Source: Escherichia phage ECD7
Sequence record: NC_041936.1
Length of the DNA: 64,000 bases
Reading direction: 5' to 3' (one strand)
This document shows, one piece after another, positions 1,132 to 48,900 of the stretch. Within the stretch, counting starts at the first letter, position 1. Every line of letters starts with the position of its first letter. A program made the translations under genes and the position numbers. The notes beneath the pieces were generated by a model, which saw nothing but the letters and a program-made list of their open reading frames with translations, was not told the DNA's origin and did not search any database.

Positions 1132-1569
1132 TTATTTGTTGATAACGATCTGATTTCGGCGAATGGTAACATTACTCTTAGAGATGATCAGATCATCCGG
1201 CACTACGTTAGTTTTGTATGGTTGGAAGCGAACAAGCATCTGATTGCGTTTAGACCCTTCCTTAATCTTGATTTCCATCTGGATATTGTTGCCTACGTGA
1301 GCAACCGCAATTTCACCTTTATTCTCATAGACCCACTTGCTGGTAACGTCTCCAGCAAAAGCCTTAATAACTTGCAATGCTTCGTCGTATGCGGTAGAGC
1401 TGTGAACTTTCAGAAGGCCAGCCGTAGCAAGACGTGAGCAGGTGATCGCCGGAGATTGCCAAACATCAACATTAATTTGCTCAATCAGAGTAACACCGCC
1501 CTGATCAACTGCTTTGAATGCTTCGAACATTGCCTTTTTCATTGCTACGTGGTTTTTACGGAATTTCAT
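1132..1569 (-). CDS. hypothetical protein
   Basis: 145-aa ORF, ATG start, terminator-like hairpin immediately downstream (approx 1101-1128). Confidence 0.55.
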   Translation of the reverse strand: MKFRKNHVAMKKAMFEAFKAVDQGGVTLIEQINVDVWQSPAITCSRLATAGLLKVHSSTAYDEALQVIKAFAGDVTSKWVYENKGEIAVAHVGNNIQMEIKIKEGSKRNQMLVRFQPYKTNVVPDDLIISKSNVTIRRNQIVINK

Positions 1570-1615
1570 AATTAGTCACCTCTATTGATTAGTTATTCAG
1601 AATATTAATTACAAA

Positions 1616-1891
1616 TCAGGACATTGCCCGTTTGAATGCGTCCATTATAACAGTGTTATTTGGCATGTCAACACGTTTTTGAACTTTATTTTTAAATTTT
1701 TTGTTGATGTGGTGTTTACGATAAACAACCTTTTCACGGTTGGCGTAAGCCTCGCGTGCGTCTTTTACCATCAACCATGCCTTAGCCGCATCTTGTCCGC
1801 TGATCCCGCCAATCTTCTTAGCAATATCAACAAAATTAAGACCGTGGTCTTCGCGTAGCATGTAAACCATTAACGCTGTTTTCTTGTCCAT
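1616..1891 (-). CDS. hypothetical protein (possible HTH)
   Basis: internal ATG (MDKKT...) chosen because it overlaps the stop of the upstream ORF in an ATGA arrangement; track ORF extends to 1999. Confidence 0.4.
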   Translation of the reverse strand: MDKKTALMVYMLREDHGLNFVDIAKKIGGISGQDAAKAWLMVKDAREAYANREKVVYRKHHINKKFKNKVQKRVDMPNNTVIMDAFKRAMS

Positions 1892-2088
1892 CACTTCGCC
1901 CCATTGACGATTAACAGGATAGTGATTAGCACCGGAAACTGGATCATGATAGTGCCAATAAACCGGATAAATGCATTTTCTGACTTCCACACATGACATG
2001 CGACTAGCTGATAGACCATTGTTGAAACCAGAACTAGGATATAAACCGAAAGCGGTGTAACTTCGATTAGTCGGGAAATCTCATTCAT
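1891..2088 (-). CDS. hypothetical small membrane protein
   Basis: 65-aa ORF, hydrophobic stretch VYILVLVSTMVYQLVA and C-terminal PVLITILLIV. Confidence 0.4.
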   Translation of the reverse strand: MNEISRLIEVTPLSVYILVLVSTMVYQLVACHVWKSENAFIRFIGTIMIQFPVLITILLIVNGAK

Positions 2089-2250
2089 ACTTCACCTCAT
2101 ACATTCATAAACACAACAACGAATAATACAGTAACAGTTATCAACGCCATTTTCAACCCCATATTCATAATATGTTCTTCGCCTCACTATGGACAGTAGC
2201 ATGTCGATGCGTGCCATTATAGACATCTAAATCGCTCTGTCAAGCACAAA

Positions 2251-3504: not shown

Positions 3505-3843
3505 ATAAAGCCACTCCCATCGAAAATCCGAATTTAATTAATTGAAATAGTTGATTGTCATCAACCAGATAACCATTGCGAGATTCCAATACATGAGTAT
3601 TAGAATAGTGATGCAACGAGGCCGAAATAATATCGATCTCGTCTGGGTATTTGTTCTGCTATAAAGTCTGCTGTACTAACAACAATCTTTAACAGAAGTG
3701 GATGACCAACGGAGCCATAAACCGGACCTTCTGTTTGATGTAATACATTGATTTTGTTAGACATGTAGTCTCCCTTTTTAATTGCATAACGGAACTACAA
3801 TTAAAATTATAACAAATATTTCACAACTTTTATCACCCAAAAA

Positions 3844-22292: not shown

Positions 22293-22613
22293 TTAGTCCT
22301 CACTTATAAGGTCAAACCAATTGTTTTTCGCATAATGCTTAATGCGTGCTTGATCTGCTTCCGCTGGTGATAGATTCCATGCAACCACTACAACTTCTGA
22401 CGCATCGTCATCAGTTTCTGATACCCAATGATTGTGATTCATACAGTTATTTGCTATCGAGTGAGCAAATGATTTCATCACTGGAGACGTATAATCATAG
22501 TAACGGATTTTCAGATTTTCATCAACATACAAATAGATCGTATAAGGTTTATATTCAGTAACCAGTAACAGACAGTTACGCAATTCTGGGAAAATCTTTT
22601 TAGTTAATTTCAT
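22293..22613 (-). CDS. HxHW-family small protein (paralog 3)
   Basis: 106 aa; ..YLYVDENLKIRY..NHNHW.. Confidence 0.5.
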   Translation of the reverse strand: MKLTKKIFPELRNCLLLVTEYKPYTIYLYVDENLKIRYYDYTSPVMKSFAHSIANNCMNHNHWVSETDDDASEVVVVAWNLSPAEADQARIKHYAKNNWFDLISED

Positions 22614-22815
22614 ATTCTAGTTCTCCGTAATACACAGTAATCCATTTTTCTTCATACTTTGTATCTTTCCAGCACACAACCCCGTTTACTGTGCAATCTT
22701 TGGAATTGACGAATGATTCATATTGTTCTGCATCTTCCATCATTTCATGAGCGGTCTTTTCATCGAATATATCGCAGATCGCTTTATATGCTCGATAATC
22801 TTTAAATTTGCTCAT
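22600..22815 (-). CDS. hypothetical small protein (MSKFKDY tandem paralog a)
   Basis: start set to ATG MSKFKDYRAYK; paralogous to next ORF. Confidence 0.5.
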   Translation of the reverse strand: MSKFKDYRAYKAICDIFDEKTAHEMMEDAEQYESFVNSKDCTVNGVVCWKDTKYEEKWITVYYGELEYEIN

Positions 22816-41940: not shown

Positions 41941-42165
41941 TTACATCGCTAACAGAGAGTCCAGGTCATCCAGATCAGAAGCGGAGGAAGTACCGCCACC
42001 CAGGTCCAGAGATGCCATCAGATCATCAGCGGAAGAATCTGACGCTGTGCTAGTTGCGGTAGTACCAGCGTCGAATGCATTCATCTGTGCATCGAAATCA
42101 TCAAGCTGGCTGTTAATCGCTGCCGCAGCACCAGAAGCCGCAGTACCAGCTACCAGCTTACGCCT
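41941..42165 (-). other. 32: gp32 C-terminal acidic domain encoded out of frame
   Basis: minus-strand frame shifted relative to 42150-42887 translates ..[44 protein letters not shown], typical of the gp32 acidic tail; no start codon of its own. Confidence 0.6.
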
Positions 42166-42887
42166 TTAACTTTCTTAAATTTAGCATCCAGTTCCTCGAA
42201 AGATTTAAACTGGTCTTTTGCTACGATAACATCAATATCTACCATGTTTTCGAACAGATATTTCTGGAATGCTTCATCTTCGATGTTCGGAATCGCTGAT
42301 TGCTGCATGAAACGTGAATCATCGTAGTTCAGGAATTTATCTACTTTCTTAGCTTTCAGAAGGAAGTTAGCGCCTTCGAACGGACATACGATGTTTACAG
42401 GTTTTTCGCCCAATTCCGTGTTTACGTTGCTCATTGCCAGAATCTTGTCATAAATTTTCTTACCGAAGCGGAATTTAAATACTTTACCTTCGTTTTCCGG
42501 CGCTTTCGGATCTTTCATGACCAGAATGTTTGCGAAGTAAGAAGATTTACGCTTAACATCTTGATATTCTTTATTGTTGGTGTTGTACAGGTCATTTTCG
42601 CTAATGTATTTGCACACAGGGCAAGAATCAAAATCACCGTGGGTGCTAGGGCAGTTTTCCCAATAATACTTACCATTTACTTTGAAAGAATGGTTTACAA
42701 GGTTGATGATCGGTAAACCGTCTTCGGTGCGTGCCGGAAGAAAACGAATCACCGCTTCACCGTTACCCGCCGCGTCAGTTTTAATCTTCCACTCTTTCGG
42801 ATCTTCTTTGGAGAAGCCGTTGCTACCTTTCAGTGCTGCCAGTTGAGCTTGCAGTTTGGAAGAATCTTGACGACGAAAAATGTTCAT
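42150..42887 (-). CDS. 32: ssDNA-binding protein gp32, N-terminal and core domains (ORF ends prematurely)
   Basis: ..[32 protein letters not shown].., ..[12 protein letters not shown].., ..[15 protein letters not shown].., ..[14 protein letters not shown].. match recalled T4 gp32; start set to ATG MNIFRRQ..; ORF stops at TAG 42150-42152 before the acidic tail. Confidence 0.8.
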
Positions 42888-42953
42888 AATTATACCTCTT
42901 TTATACATTAACTATTAATTTGCTAGATTATTATACAGATTTAAATTTACTTG

Positions 42954-43634
42954 TCAACTATTTGTTTCGGCTTTTAATTGAGATATTTCTTTACACTCTT
43001 TAACTACTTTAACAAATAATGCTCTTGCTTTTGCGGCGTCAATAACAAGTAGTTTCTTGTACGCCTTCATTTTAACACTATAAGTTTGCCAAATCAAGTC
43101 TTTGGCTACCTTGTCGTGTTCGTCGATTATATTTAGAAAGCTATCTAACAACATAAACGACTCAAACGATATAATCCGATTTTGCAGTAGTTTAAAAATA
43201 CCGCTTGTTTCGGTTGCGGGATTATATGTAATTAGCTCTTTAAGAGTAACCCCGCGTTTCTCTGAGAAGTATACCAGACTTTTAATGTCATCGTCAAATC
43301 GTGTTGCAGCATCAGTGATCTTACCGATATACTCCATGTAAAATCCGTATGCGTCAACATCAGTGATTTCACCTACCCATGCATCGGTATTAGCTACCAG
43401 ATTGCTTAGGAATAGGAAGTATAATTCTCTTAGATTGTACTTTTCCGCTAATTTTGCGAAATAATACTTATCTCTGCGTTTATTGAATGCGGCATCAGAC
43501 AACCGCATCCTCCAATTGTATTTTACGCAATCATAACGCCCGTTCATGTGAGCTTTCATCATGCAATATAACATATACACAGATTTAGCATTAATTCGCA
43601 TATCTGGATCTGGAGGAAGACGGTTTCTGATCAT
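42954..43634 (-). CDS. 59: helicase loader gp59
   Basis: ..AKSVYMLYCMMKAHMNGRYDCVKYNWRMRLSDAAFNKRRDKYYF.. matches recalled T4 gp59. Confidence 0.8.
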   Translation of the reverse strand: MIRNRLPPDPDMRINAKSVYMLYCMMKAHMNGRYDCVKYNWRMRLSDAAFNKRRDKYYFAKLAEKYNLRELYFLFLSNLVANTDAWVGEITDVDAYGFYMEYIGKITDAATRFDDDIKSLVYFSEKRGVTLKELITYNPATETSGIFKLLQNRIISFESFMLLDSFLNIIDEHDKVAKDLIWQTYSVKMKAYKKLLVIDAAKARALFVKVVKECKEISQLKAETNS

Positions 43635-43643
43635 ACATACCCC

Positions 43644-43898
43644 TTAAATATCGAGAGTGTTGGTCGGTTCGTCGATCACTCCCTTCCTGAGCGTTCTATT
43701 TACTATACATTCTTGTGTGATCTTGTCAATAATGGACACAGGAATATACTTCTGATAGTGACCATATTCGATAGAGTTTTCCTCTACAAACTGCGTTGTC
43801 GCTTCAAGATAAGTCAATCCCTCTTCAACAACCAGTTTTTCGATTGCAAGACCGTTTGCTGTTTTGTTCGCGGCTTTTACCGCATGTTCATTAAGCAT
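43644..43898 (-). CDS. 33: late transcription co-activator gp33-like (by synteny)
   Basis: small acidic protein between 59 and dsbA; start set to internal ATG (MLNEHAV..). Confidence 0.5.
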   Translation of the reverse strand: MLNEHAVKAANKTANGLAIEKLVVEEGLTYLEATTQFVEENSIEYGHYQKYIPVSIIDKITQECIVNRTLRKGVIDEPTNTLDI

Positions 43899-44166
43899 TG
43901 AACACCCGATCATAGAGTTCTACCGCTTCGTCGCGTTCTGCTTCGAAGGTTTCGCGCTGTTGCTGGTGATACAGTTTAAACAGAATGCCCCACATTTTAC
44001 CATCTACGCCTAATTCTTCTTTAGCACGCTGCTTGATCTCTTTGATCTTATCGCCATATGCTTCTTGAATGGTTTTCTGATCGCTGGCTTCTTTAATCAG
44101 TTGTGCCAGGGTATTTCCGTGCACTGCTTCGTCGAATACTACTTTTTCTTTTTTCTGTTCAGTCAT
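43891..44166 (-). CDS. dsbA: DsbA-like dsDNA-binding protein (by synteny)
   Basis: 91-aa charged protein at the T4 dsbA position. Confidence 0.55.
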   Translation of the reverse strand: MTEQKKEKVVFDEAVHGNTLAQLIKEASDQKTIQEAYGDKIKEIKQRAKEELGVDGKMWGILFKLYHQQQRETFEAERDEAVELYDRVFNA

Positions 44167-44170
44167 AATA

Positions 44171-44776
44171 TTAACCCTCTTTCGTCATTAATTGAAAACC
44201 ACGTTCAGCTTTTGAGATTTCGCTAGGACGTAAATCGTCACCCACATATTCTAGCATCATTTCTCGGATAATGTCAAGTGCTTTTTCATCACCTGATTTT
44301 AACTCGAACTCAAGTTCATAATGAGCAGTGTCGCCCATTCCTTCGCCTACTTTGCCATAATAGAAAGTGTCTTTGCACATTTCCACTATACCGCAACCCA
44401 GATCTAGAGTCAATGACTTGCGATATGTCATTACTTGCATTATTGTAGTGATATAGTCTGAGTTTACCCCTAGACTATCAATAAAATGGACGAACTCATC
44501 CCAATTTGAAAATGTCATTTCCTCGCGGTTGAATAGTCCAGATTCATTATCACCCATTTTGACCATGATCTCTGATTTTCTACAGTCAAGTCGTGCATAA
44601 ATTCCTTTTTGACGTAGCGCATGGTCTTCGGTATCATAATAAAATTCGTGTTTTAATATGTTATCTCGGTCTACGATATTATAACCGTCATACATTGCTA
44701 CCCACAAATCACAGATGGTTTCGACGCCAATTTGTGAGTGTGCATAGTATTTTAATTCAAGTTCTTTCATAGTCAA
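44171..44776 (-). CDS. CYTH-like (triphosphate tunnel metalloenzyme) domain protein
   Basis: N-terminal ExExK signature (MKELELKYY) and C-terminal ..HYELEFELK..; inserted between dsbA and rnh, absent from T4. Confidence 0.5.
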   Translation of the reverse strand: MTMKELELKYYAHSQIGVETICDLWVAMYDGYNIVDRDNILKHEFYYDTEDHALRQKGIYARLDCRKSEIMVKMGDNESGLFNREEMTFSNWDEFVHFIDSLGVNSDYITTIMQVMTYRKSLTLDLGCGIVEMCKDTFYYGKVGEGMGDTAHYELEFELKSGDEKALDIIREMMLEYVGDDLRPSEISKAERGFQLMTKEG

Positions 44777-44779
44777 CCC

Positions 44780-45727
44780 TTAGAACTCACCAATTTTCTG
44801 CAACATTTTAACTAACGCATTTGTTACAAAATAATTATAAATTTTACCGCGTGGTGCTGGTTTAGATTTCTCCCATGCCAACAAAATTTCATATTCGATG
44901 TTATCAGGAATAAATTCAAAATCAATAAGTTCGCGGTTTTCGTCAAAGCGTCGTGCTTCTTCCTCTGTCATCAAAGACTTTGGATCTTCGGCATCGAAAA
45001 TTTGCTCTAACCATTTGGTTGCAATTGGTTTAGCTCGTTCCCCTTCCAGTCGTGAGATAATGAAATCACTACGGCACTTGATAGAAGCTACACCGTCTTT
45101 TGCGTCACCCTTAACACATTTTACCATAAGGTCTTTGTAAGGGCTACCATATTTGCATTTCTTCCATGCTTTCTGTACTGGCGCCCACTGTTTCACATTT
45201 TTGTATTTGTGCAACTGTGTGTAGTCACCATCGCCGGAGTTGATTAGCACCTGGCGACCTTCTACAGAAAACTTTTTAGTTAACACAGCTATTATATCAT
45301 CCGCTTCAACTTTGTCAACCTTAATAACGTGATAAGGCATATTCTCTTTAAACTCTTCGGTGATCTTATTGATCGCAGCAAAGATCATCTCCCAATCACG
45401 CGGATCTGCGTCTCGTTTTTCCTTACGGTTGCGTTTATAGTAAGGGGCGATATCACGTCGCCAGTAACCTTTGCTTGAATCAAAAGCAAGTACCGTAATA
45501 GGGTATTGCTCTTTGAATTTTGTCATATTATAACGCATGGTGTCAAGAATAAGATGACGGATCATGCCTTCATTAATAGGATCTTCCGGTTTAAAGGTAT
45601 GCGAGATAGTAGCAATCATAAGCTGCGACATATCAATCAAATGCACACCCTCCGGCAGTTTATCTTCTGGATCATCGAAGAAATCATTAAGTGTAGCGGT
45701 AGTTTTTGTAAACGGGTTATACGTCAT
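44780..45727 (-). CDS. rnh: RNase H / flap endonuclease
   Basis: ..MPYHVIKVDKVEADDIIAVLTKKFSVEGRQVLINSGDGDYTQLHKYKNVKQW.. matches recalled T4 RNase H. Confidence 0.85.
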   Translation of the reverse strand: MTYNPFTKTTATLNDFFDDPEDKLPEGVHLIDMSQLMIATISHTFKPEDPINEGMIRHLILDTMRYNMTKFKEQYPITVLAFDSSKGYWRRDIAPYYKRNRKEKRDADPRDWEMIFAAINKITEEFKENMPYHVIKVDKVEADDIIAVLTKKFSVEGRQVLINSGDGDYTQLHKYKNVKQWAPVQKAWKKCKYGSPYKDLMVKCVKGDAKDGVASIKCRSDFIISRLEGERAKPIATKWLEQIFDAEDPKSLMTEEEARRFDENRELIDFEFIPDNIEYEILLAWEKSKPAPRGKIYNYFVTNALVKMLQKIGEF

Positions 45728-45915: not shown

Positions 45916-45953
45916 AATATATCATCCTCTTTTGTTTCTATCAAGCCTCATTT

Positions 45954-45961
45954 TATAAATA
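45954..45961 (+). promoter_or_regulatory. T4-type late promoter (TATAAATA) for gene 34
   Basis: exact TATAAATA about 29 nt upstream of gp34 ATG. Confidence 0.6.
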
Positions 45962-45989
45962 TGAACATACTATAAAAGGAGACCCAATA

Positions 45990-48900
45990 ATGGCAGATTT
46001 TTCTCAACATTTCAAGGCCACATTTGGCTTTGACGCTGGTAATGAAAAGGTCGTCAATGTAGCATTGGCTGATAAGAATGTCAACACCGATGCGGTCAAC
46101 GTTGAATTTTTCAATTACCATAATGGTATTACTCAGTATGACACAACTCGCGGTTATGATCAATACGGAACTACAATCTATCAAAACCGTCCGTATTATG
46201 CAAAAGAAGATATCACAAAGCCAGCAGGTGATTTTGACCCGACTAAATGGCAAGCACTGCGCACGGACCCACGTTGGGATTATATTGCAGCAACTTCCGG
46301 TGATACTCCTTTACAGTCTGGTGATTATATCGCAGCAGATGGTCAATTTGCAAACTTGACTTTCTCTATGCCAACTAAACCAGCAGAGGGAGACACTATA
46401 ACAGTAAAAGATATCGGTGGCAAGTGTGGTGTTAACGAATTATCGTTCTTGAGTTCAGGACATGAGTTTTACCATAACGGTAATGTGTATAACCGAAAAT
46501 GGTATTGCACTACCCCGTATGCAATGAACTATTTCATCTTTGTTCGTAATCGTTGGCATGTTTATCAGACAGGAACAGAGCCACGCGGGGTGTACGCACA
46601 GCCAGCGATTGATGCTATTCAAATGCAGAATGGTGATCAGGTCTTTCGTCGTAGTTCGTTGGGTAATATTACCTTAGTGCTTCCTAAGTTTGCCAACAAT
46701 GGCGACATGATCCAGACTACAGACCTTGACGGATTAACCGCAACCAACCACGTTACGGTTAAAGTTCATGAGCACGCAGAAGAACAATCAATTGGCACGT
46801 CCGGTCTAAAAGAGATTATCGGTAAGCGTAGCGGTCATGGTGTATTCATCTTTGACAAGACGGAAAACTTATGGCGTTTGTGGGATGGTGATCAGTCTGT
46901 TCGTCTTAAACCGATCATCGATGACACTCGCTTGCAACCTAATAGCTATGTTGCCGTATTTGGTGATCGTGATGTTACTCTGACGCTGCCGACCAATGTC
47001 GAGCCGGGTGATCGTATTCAAGTTTCTATGCAGTATATGCACGGAAACCAGACTTGCCGAATCATTACCTCAGAAGAGGATACAAAAATCCTTATGCAGA
47101 AAAACATGGTTCAGTTTCCTAAGCGTAGCGAGTACCCATTCAATGGGACCGATACATGGACGGGAGTTTCTGAATTGTCTTTCAACGCTGCAAATGATTA
47201 TGTACCTTATCTGGAGTTCTCTTATTCAGAAGGTGATGATGGTAAGAAATACTGGTTGGTGGCACATGCTCACCCGATTGTAGAACGAGTAGATCCGACT
47301 CGTAAAGACCGTGTTGGTGTAATTGCACTGGCTACCCAGACTGAAACGAATAAAAACCATGAAGAGAATCCTAGCGACGAAGTTGCAGTAACACCAAAAA
47401 TGCTGGCTAATAAAACCGCCAACGAAACTCGACGCGGTATTGCTCGAATTGCAACTCAAGCGGAAACGCATCAAGATACTGGTTCCAACTTCCTGGATGA
47501 TGTTATCGTTACGCCTAAAAAGTTAAATGACTGTGTTGCTACCGAAGCCCGTCGTGGTGTGATGGAAATTGCAACCCAGCACGAAACCAATGAAGGTTTA
47601 GACGATACCCGCGCTATTACTCCTAAGAAATTAGAAGAACGTCGCGCTTCCGAAGATCTCGCTGGTATTGCTGAAATTGTTCAGGTTGGCGGTAGTGCTG
47701 CCGCTCGACGTGGCGAAGCTGGTACAGGGATCTATAACATCAACGACCATGCTAAAATTGTTACGCCAAAAAACATCAACGAGGTCAAGGCGACCGAAAC
47801 TTCCCGTGGTGTTGGCTATCTGGCAACTGACGCGGAAGTGCAAGGGGCTACAGAATCAACCCCGCAAGATGCTTTACTAATCACGACTCGCACGCTAACG
47901 AAACGTACTGCTACCGAATCGCGCACTGGTATCGCTGAAATTGCAACACAGGAAGAAACAAACTTAGGTCAAAGTGATAACCATATCATCACGCCTAAAA
48001 AGCTGCATACTCGCCGCGCAACGGAAACTTTACACGGTTTAGCAGAAATTGCAACTCAGCCGGAATTTGACGCAGGTCTTGACGATGCTCGCATTTCTAC
48101 CCCATTGAAGATTAAAACCTTCTTTGAGAATGCACAGCGTTTGAAAGTAGATCCGACTCAGGGGCTTAACCTTACTGGTGATTTGTGGCAAGGTATCATG
48201 ATCCGCGGTCTGGACGCAACCGAAGACACAAAAGGTGTCGCTAAAGTTGCTACTACTCAGCTTACGGATGCTGGTCAAGATGATACTACAATCATCACGC
48301 CTAAAAAGCTGCAAGGCAAAAAGGCCACAGAAGGTAAAGAAGGTATTATCCGAGTTGGTACTCAAGCCGAAACCGTGGCTGGTACACTGGCTAATGTAGC
48401 AATTTCTCCGAAGAACTTCAAATATGTTGTTCAGACAGAGGATACATGGAAAGCAACCGAAGCGCGTCGTGGTTTCTTGAAAGTTGCCACTCAGGAAAAC
48501 TGTTTTGTTGGTGATAATCTGCAAGGTTCTACTCAAGAACTAGGAAACTACCAGCATGACGGAATTGCTGTTACCCCGAAAGGATTAAACTACGCACTTG
48601 CTAATTTCTTACCTAAGATGGCAACCGCTCAGAATAGTTTGAAATTAGGTAACGTAGAGGCCGCTAAATGGGCGCGTAGAGACATTGACCAGACCATAGA
48701 GAGCAATTACACGTTTAATAAAAACGTTAACGTGAAGGGCGATTTAGAGTGCTTAAAATCAGGTTCCTTTGAAACTCTGTATGTGACTAAGAACTCTACT
48801 GATGATCCGAGTAATGGTCATCTGGTGTTGGGTGAGCGTGGAGTTGACGGTCACACCGGAATTACTCTGCATGGCACAACCGCATCGGAAGGCATGAAAA

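Follow-up and report, generated by a model that had tools for sequence, protein, structure and literature searches.

The 64,000-nt stretch of Escherichia phage ECD7 analysed here (the window; sequence record NC_041936.1) carries, between rnh and dsbA, a gene for a 199-residue protein which profile comparisons and a structure model assign to the CYTH/triphosphate tunnel metalloenzyme (TTM) family and, within it, to the YgiF-like branch. By analogy with characterized TTMs we consider it likely, with a probability of about 70%, that the protein is a metal-dependent phosphohydrolase acting on the terminal phosphate of a triphosphate compound. The CYTH domain of this gene was already noted between 2003 and 2006, so the assignment itself is not new: the RB49 RefSeq record describes RB49p245 as “similar to P45267, P30871, HI1598, ygiF”, and Nolan et al. 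(2006) list “RB49ORF244c CYTH domain 0.0026” (PMC1524935). Most sequence records label the gene “hypothetical protein”, a few “inorganic triphosphatase” or “adenylate cyclase”, and PHROG 14893 is given as “unknown function”. What we add is an altered basic motif, deep synteny and, as the main addition, a hypervariable core that appears to recombine. The gene was delimited as follows:

44171..44776, minus strand: open reading frame (ORF) as mechanically called, 201 aa, TTG start
44171..44770, minus strand: CYTH/TTM coding sequence (CDS), 199 aa plus stop, ATG start; PF01928 match, start common to all homologues

Family and fold

The initial annotation had read this ORF as a CYTH-like tunnel protein and had named a CYTH profile search and a predicted beta-barrel tunnel as the checks on that reading; both came out in its favour. 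The protein matched Pfam CYTH (PF01928) above the gathering score (30.7 bits against 23.2; E = 3.4e-7), with residues 23–191 aligned to profile positions 21–178 of 179, and PHROG 14893 at 1e-133. The AlphaFold2 model, built on an 18-sequence alignment (predicted local distance difference test, pLDDT, 92.6; predicted template modelling score, pTM, 0.86), shows eight long strands followed by a helix at the C-terminus. Compared with the PDB in Foldseek, it matched E. coli YgiF best (E = 2.4e-12; TM-score 0.77 on the query), and every other strong match was likewise a TTM enzyme; the matches include class IV cyclases, the Cet1, mimivirus and baculovirus RNA triphosphatases, and Med18/20 of Mediator. 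A profile–profile comparison with 24 cellular YgiF-like CYTH proteins gave a probability of 99.8% (E = 1.6e-28). The ORF is real and not a product of chance, as shown by the Pfam and PHROG matches, its presence in all 57 related phage records described below, a ratio of nonsynonymous to synonymous divergence (dN/dS) below 1 and the confident AlphaFold model.

Other searches with the protein gave little. An NCBIfam scan returned no match, and a single-sequence search of the PDB found only weak ones, to the TriTu immunity protein (87 aa; E = 0.028, 17 bits) and to YgiF (E = 0.13); the former was taken as a chance similarity because the profile search retained YgiF alone.

The closest similarity is thus to the N-terminal TTM domain of E. 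coli YgiF (PDB 5A60/5A61), a specific inorganic triphosphatase, with which the phage protein shares an SKxxRG plug helix. Identity between the two is only 22–23%, and a recent capture of the host ygiF was rejected on this ground. YgiF (433 aa) also carries a CHAD domain, for which the 199-residue phage protein gave no match; among the cellular relatives sampled, 1 of 24 has CHAD and many stand alone. RB49p245, RB49ORF244c and phi1p245 (PHROG 14893) belong to the same family at the same locus with 85–98% identity, and differ from the ECD7 protein only as alleles. In P. aeruginosa, a host ygiF mutant was resistant to four phages, for which the authors speculate on an effect on lipopolysaccharide and Psl (PMC12406683); this result has no established link to phage TTM genes.

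Predicted catalytic residues

Residues were mapped by aligning the phage protein on YgiF, and the roles given below are those established by Martinez et al. (2015; PMC4641920). Three stretches of the sequence hold most of the inventory:

44750..44764, minus strand: strand beta1, ExExK motif E3-L-E5-L-K7 (alignment to YgiF; invariant in all homologues)
44297..44317, minus strand: strand beta8, E152-L-E154-F-E156-L-K158 (alignment to YgiF)
44198..44215, minus strand: C-terminal plug-helix motif S186-K187-A-E-R190-G191 (common with YgiF SKAARG)

Both acidic strands on which the initial annotation had relied, the ExExK start and a second strand of the YELEFELK type, are therefore present. E3 and E5 correspond to E4 and E6 of YgiF, which are ligands of metal 2, and K7 to K8. 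K71 is the equivalent of K69, a residue that binds substrate and orients E4 for metal 2, while R82 and E84 correspond to R81 and E83, and R117 to R126; these last three are kept in every CYTH sequence aligned. On beta8, E154 matches YgiF E160, described as a metal 1 ligand invariant in all TTMs, and E156 matches E162, a ligand of metal 2. All mapped residues (E3, E5, K7, K71, R82, E84, R117, E154, E156 and S186-K187/R190-G191 of the plug helix) are invariant across the family, and for the metal glutamates and the other basic residues this holds in alleles down to 30% identity.

Altered basic motif and tunnel lining

44585..44599, minus strand: strand beta3 motif Y58-A-R60-L-D62, an altered W/YxRxR-RxR (hhalign, MAFFT, hairpin DSSP of two models)
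44651..44653, minus strand: K40, inward-facing lysine on beta2 (clade-specific; L, Q or M in generic CYTH proteins)

Strand beta3 reads G56-I-Y58-A-R60-L-D62, with a single arginine where the canonical motif is RxR. The alignments place it in two registers. According to hhalign and two MAFFT alignments, R60 is the equivalent of the first, catalytic arginine (YgiF R56, AtTTM3 R52), D62 that of YgiF R58, and Y58 falls on the small-residue position where thiamine triphosphatase (ThTPase) has W53. Only the gapless HMMER alignment to YgiF sets Y58 against R56 and R60 against R58. The choice matters for function: according to Martinez et al. (2015), mutation of the catalytic arginine abolishes activity in YgiF and AtTTM3, and mutation of the second arginine in AtTTM3 had little effect. 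The first register is probably the correct one, because the metagenomic homologue P0043 aligns gaplessly in it to the archaeal CYTH protein P0046, because P0042 and P0043 have a one-residue deletion in the beta3–beta4 hairpin loop, and because DSSP assignments of two models put the loop at 63–66 and 62–65 with a beta4 lysine opposite Y58, which fits a loop of 3–4 residues. The gapless HMMER register, with which hhalign and both MAFFT alignments disagree, was judged less likely. Under the preferred alignment the phage hairpin is two residues shorter than that of YgiF.

Further changes were found along the predicted tunnel. At inward positions 9, 58, 80, 136 and 138 the phage clade has aromatic residues (Y9, Y58, F80, F136 and Y138); their counterparts in YgiF are I, G, H, G and V. 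Taken together, D62 in place of the second arginine, the new K40, which may compensate for the lost arginine, and the five extra inward aromatics point to a tunnel remodelled relative to that of YgiF, which is specific for inorganic triphosphate (PPPi). These differences argue against assuming PPPi specificity from YgiF, and because of them PPPi itself is less likely to be the preferred substrate than an organic triphosphate resembling a nucleotide. The mammalian 25-kDa ThTPase is not a close counterpart: its W/YxRxR motif reads Y-x-R-x-D in the phage protein, with aspartate in place of the second arginine, the two remotest members of the clade (P0044 and P0045) have V or I instead of Y58, and overall similarity is below that to YgiF.

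Distribution and synteny

The window is 90–98% identical at the nucleotide level to 57 Krischvirus records, including RB49, Phi1 and JSE. The CYTH gene family occurs in all 57 of them and in no others among 50,697 phage records. An exhaustive search of 1.84 billion representatives with a hidden Markov model (HMM) returned just three clusters below 1e-30, followed by generic cellular CYTH proteins at 1e-15 or above; those sampled are mostly stand-alone proteins of about 200 aa, with some CYTH–CHAD fusions. The metagenomic homologues P0043, P0044 and P0045 (50%, 39% and 30% identity) all lie directly upstream of dsbA-33, and P0043 is also directly downstream of rnh. Since this synteny holds in metagenomic relatives at 30–50% identity, the gene has long held a stable place in Krischvirus and in those relatives of the lineage that have not been cultured. 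It also evolves much faster than its neighbours, as judged from the P0045 phage, in which the adjoining dsbA-33 DNA is 74% identical to that of Krischvirus and the CYTH protein 31%.

Among the closest cellular relatives is the archaeal stand-alone CYTH gene encoding P0046 (L009/L010, 6001–6606), which directly follows a gene of the PRK family (uridine kinase-like) and adjoins an RNA ligase and a NUDIX gene. The kinase neighbour recalls the kinase–TTM fusion of plant TTM1/2.

A hypervariable core

44321..44743, minus strand: hypervariable cassette, codons 10–150 (nucleotide identity against phages with near-identical flanks)

In the phages compared, the backbone genes rnh, dsbA, 33 and 59 are 96–100% identical to the window at the nucleotide level. 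Identity over the cassette is 53–54% in Skers and in the metagenome contig L004, and about 84% in RB49, JSE, GEC-3S and MIZ4. The ends of the gene are conserved, with 95–99% identity over its first 30 nt and last 150 nt, and the boundaries of the cassette are sharp. Synonymous divergence (dS) of the core is 0.24–0.50 for RB49-type alleles and about 3, that is saturated, for the Skers and P0042 types, against 0.035–0.196 for the genes on either side and for the 3′-terminal part of the CYTH gene. Core dN/dS is 0.24–0.43, compared with at most 0.13 in rnh and at most 0.18 in dsbA; these values give no support to gene-wide positive selection.

At least four core allele classes occur on Krischvirus-type sequence, two of which are shown on near-identical backbones. 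The classes are mutually 39–59% identical in amino acid sequence, as diverged as each is from P0043, which comes from a phage of another lineage, and yet 86–100% identical over their C-terminal 49 residues. Ranked by divergence, the core is 3rd of 94 ORFs shared with Skers, behind the gene for the distal tail fibre and an ORF of 54 aa, and 4th of 69 shared with RB49; between the window and Skers it is the longest island that is fully aligned yet diverged. Within the cassette, inward-facing strand positions are conserved at 71–77%, and outward-facing and loop positions at 36–51%.

Most simply read, these sequence patterns mean that homologous recombination, anchored in the conserved gene ends, swaps old alleles between phages, and that the tunnel would be under purifying selection, with relaxed or diversifying selection on the exterior. 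Such variation would fit contacts with host factors that themselves vary. Local mosaicism by exchange is well known in T4-type phages. Between Phi1 and RB49, Arbiol et al. (2010) counted 23 genes that fall below 90% identity, of which nine belong to core regions; their text does not name the CYTH ORF among the diverged genes.

Other diverged places were seen in the window. Near the 3′ end of rnh, just upstream of the CYTH gene, a patch at 44861–44980 has 68–85% nucleotide identity to RB49, Skers and GEC-3S, with 93–100% over the rest of rnh, and looks like a second small mosaic. Further downstream, gp32 (42150–42908) is among the most divergent shared proteins (78–80% amino acid identity to RB49 and Skers). 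At the adjoining 59/32 junction (near 42908–42954), Skers, MIZ4, G2494 and Cognac have an HNH endonuclease gene that is absent from the window; T4 carries segG at this junction. Two small minus-strand ORFs, at 3600–3764 (54 aa) and 22600–22815 (71 aa), have 54% and 61–63% amino acid identity between the window and RB49/Skers, a divergence equal or nearly equal to that of the CYTH gene.

Start codon, neighbours and transcription

44777..44782, minus strand: TAAGGG, in which the stop codon of rnh overlaps a Shine-Dalgarno-like sequence, 6 nt ahead of the ATG (read from the sequence)
44780..45727, minus strand: rnh (T4 RNase H / 5′-3′ exonuclease), upstream neighbour in the same transcription direction
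43891..44166, minus strand: dsbA, downstream neighbour; its Shine-Dalgarno site GAGGG lies within the last codons of the CYTH gene

The true start of the gene is almost certainly the ATG at 44770, two codons past the TTG of the mechanical call; the product (MKELELKYY...) then has 199 aa rather than 201, since all homologues and all GenBank annotations begin there. Directly before this ATG stands TAAGGGTTGACT, which comprises the TAA stop of rnh and a Shine-Dalgarno-like AAGGG. The CYTH gene follows rnh at a distance of 10 nt, and the TAAGGG overlap suggests that its translation is coupled to that of rnh. As the initial annotation had it, the ORF lies between dsbA and rnh and has no T4 counterpart at this position, where in T4 only 8 bp separate dsbA from the adjoining rnh. 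The RNA repair genes pseT and rnlA, alongside which a role had also been envisaged, are not neighbours, lying 12–15 kb from the CYTH gene in RB49. Neither this role in 5′-ppp RNA processing nor the other one put forward there, manipulation of nucleotide second messengers, gained specific support.

On the minus strand the order is rnh, CYTH gene, dsbA, 33, 59, 32, which suggests that the CYTH gene is co-transcribed with this early/middle replication cluster. Gene 34 is divergent, on the plus strand from 45990, with a T4-type late promoter, TATAAATA, at 45954, and the intergenic region 45916–46084 contains sigma70-like sites. The RB49 record has no annotated promoter between gene 34 and gene 59. 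A scan for a promoter or terminator belonging to the CYTH gene itself gave consensus-like sites without support (TTGACT-16-TAAAAT spanning the start codon and TTGACA-18-TAGAAT at 44277..44248), and the annotated promoters of RB49 lie elsewhere. Two perfect sigma70 consensus sites (12/12; TTGACA-16-TATAAT) were noticed on the minus strand of the surrounding region: one at 45318–45291, inside rnh and with an extended -10 TG, the other at 42957–42930, ahead of gene 32, at a place annotated as an early promoter in RB49.

Proposed function and alternatives

We propose that the protein would act as a stand-alone, catalytically competent YgiF-like TTM of the hydrolase type. By analogy with YgiF, AtTTM3 and ThTPase, the triphosphate would sit in the barrel, held by K7, R60, K71, R82 and R117 together with K187 and R190 of the plug helix. 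Metal 1 would be bound by E154 and metal 2 by E3, E5 and E156, and metal 2 would activate the water that removes the terminal phosphate.

Several points weigh against this proposal. The match to Pfam scores only modestly, and several alleles lack a precomputed one. One arginine of the RxR motif is lost; were the gapless register right, it would be the catalytic one, and the protein could be weakly active or inactive. The placement of D62, K40 and the aromatics in the tunnel follows from strand parity alone. Hypervariability is unusual for a housekeeping metabolic enzyme. In vB_EcoM_G2494 (L016, 1501–2096) the CYTH gene is annotated as two CDSs, 1501..1701 and 1704..2096. Either a disrupting frameshift or nonsense mutation or an error in sequencing lies behind this; were the split real, the gene would be dispensable for propagation, at least in the laboratory. 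Lastly, literature searches found no biochemical data on any member of the family, and no functional study of a phage CYTH/TTM protein, of a Krischvirus cyclase or triphosphatase, or of CYTH proteins in anti-defence work. For jumbo phages, a comparative paper suggests that CYTH and MazG triphosphatases might degrade unmodified nucleoside triphosphates (NTPs; PMC7824862).

A more specific version of the proposed hydrolase is a counter-defence enzyme that would hydrolyse a triphosphate immune signal or toxic nucleotide produced by host defence, such as an NTP analogue that terminates chains or carries a signal, or an alarmone-like compound, with the variable surface serving to escape host sensors or inhibitors. 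The divergence rank of the core, exceeded only by gene 37 and small ORFs, speaks for it, as do a core dS far above that of the flanks, which implies old alleles kept and swapped, catalytic residues conserved throughout, a more aromatic tunnel suggestive of a non-PPPi substrate, and the confinement of the family to one phage lineage. We nevertheless regard it as doubtful: the PADLOC models gave no match at E up to 10, the literature offered neither an anti-defence family with a TTM fold nor any other link, the neighbours are not defence-related but form a replication and late-transcription cluster, gene-wide dN/dS is below 1, and mosaic exchange alone can yield such islands in T4-like phages (Arbiol et al., 2010). 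More doubtful still is the full form of this idea, a counter-defence or host-manipulating TTM in which the YxRxD/K40/aromatic tunnel would cleave a nucleotide-like triphosphate while frequency-dependent selection varies the surface through cassette exchange.

That the protein is an RNA 5′-triphosphatase, taking the gamma-phosphate off 5′-ppp RNA, seems improbable. Its targets could be the pppRNA primers that have to be cleared by the RNase H encoded next to it, or transcripts of host or phage whose decay or repair would thereby change. The Cet1, mimivirus and baculovirus RNA triphosphatases among the fold matches are themselves TTMs, and the gene starts 10 nt past rnh, to which it is probably coupled. 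With the Cet1-type viral and fungal enzymes the phage protein has a predicted likeness in the tunnel fold, the two glutamate-rich strands and metal-dependent hydrolysis of a gamma-phosphate.

A dead or weakly active ligand binder on a TTM scaffold, which might sequester or sense a phosphorylated ligand or serve as a protein–protein interaction module, would account for the lost RxR arginine and the hypervariable surface, and non-catalytic TTM-like folds do exist, Mediator Med18/20 among the fold matches being an example. We think it very unlikely, as invariance of the metal glutamates and the other basic residues down to 30% identity is hard to explain without catalysis or metal–triphosphate binding.

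Least probable of all is a class IV (CyaB-type) adenylyl or nucleotidyl cyclase that would manipulate host signalling through cyclic AMP or another cyclic nucleotide, the possibility which the initial annotation had set beside a triphosphatase: the triphosphatase half of that pair fits the protein, and the cyclase half is contradicted by the class IV signatures. The CYTH fold and ExExK are indeed common to the phage protein and the class IV adenylyl cyclases (CyaB, YpAC-IV), cyclase structures are among the fold matches, and three records, OR352938 (AV108), OR525698 (KMB43) and MK573636 (PHB13), say “adenylate cyclase”. Vogt et al. (2021; PMC8233210), however, give three signatures that divide class IV cyclases from hydrolases: HFxxxxExExK, a small residue (V, C or L) for the first arginine of RxR, and alanine for the second glutamate of ExE. 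The phage protein has just M1-K2 before E3, too few residues to accommodate an HF placed four positions ahead of ExExK; the second glutamate is retained as the invariant E156; and the first-arginine position holds R60 in the hhalign/MAFFT register and a tyrosine, also not a small residue, in that of HMMER. With the class IV signatures missing, a CyaB-type cyclase was rejected in favour of the hydrolase type. The label in the three records is very probably a misannotation, and was probably carried over from the name of the CYTH family.

Significance

Phage CYTH/TTM genes are scattered through T4-like and jumbo phages, and none of them has a known substrate or role in the literature searched. 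The family described here is tractable, being a small, soluble-looking and well-modelled protein of easily grown coliphages (RB49, Phi1 and JSE), and it comes with a natural resource of alleles 39–59% identical in the core on near-isogenic backbones, along with one natural split allele. Of immediate practical value is the correction of “adenylate cyclase” in several GenBank records. If the cassette does reflect an arms race, it would mark a new host–phage interaction; otherwise the gene would encode another accessory nucleotide or phosphate hydrolase. A counter-defence role, if true, would be the first function for a phage TTM and the first involvement of a TTM in phage–host conflict.
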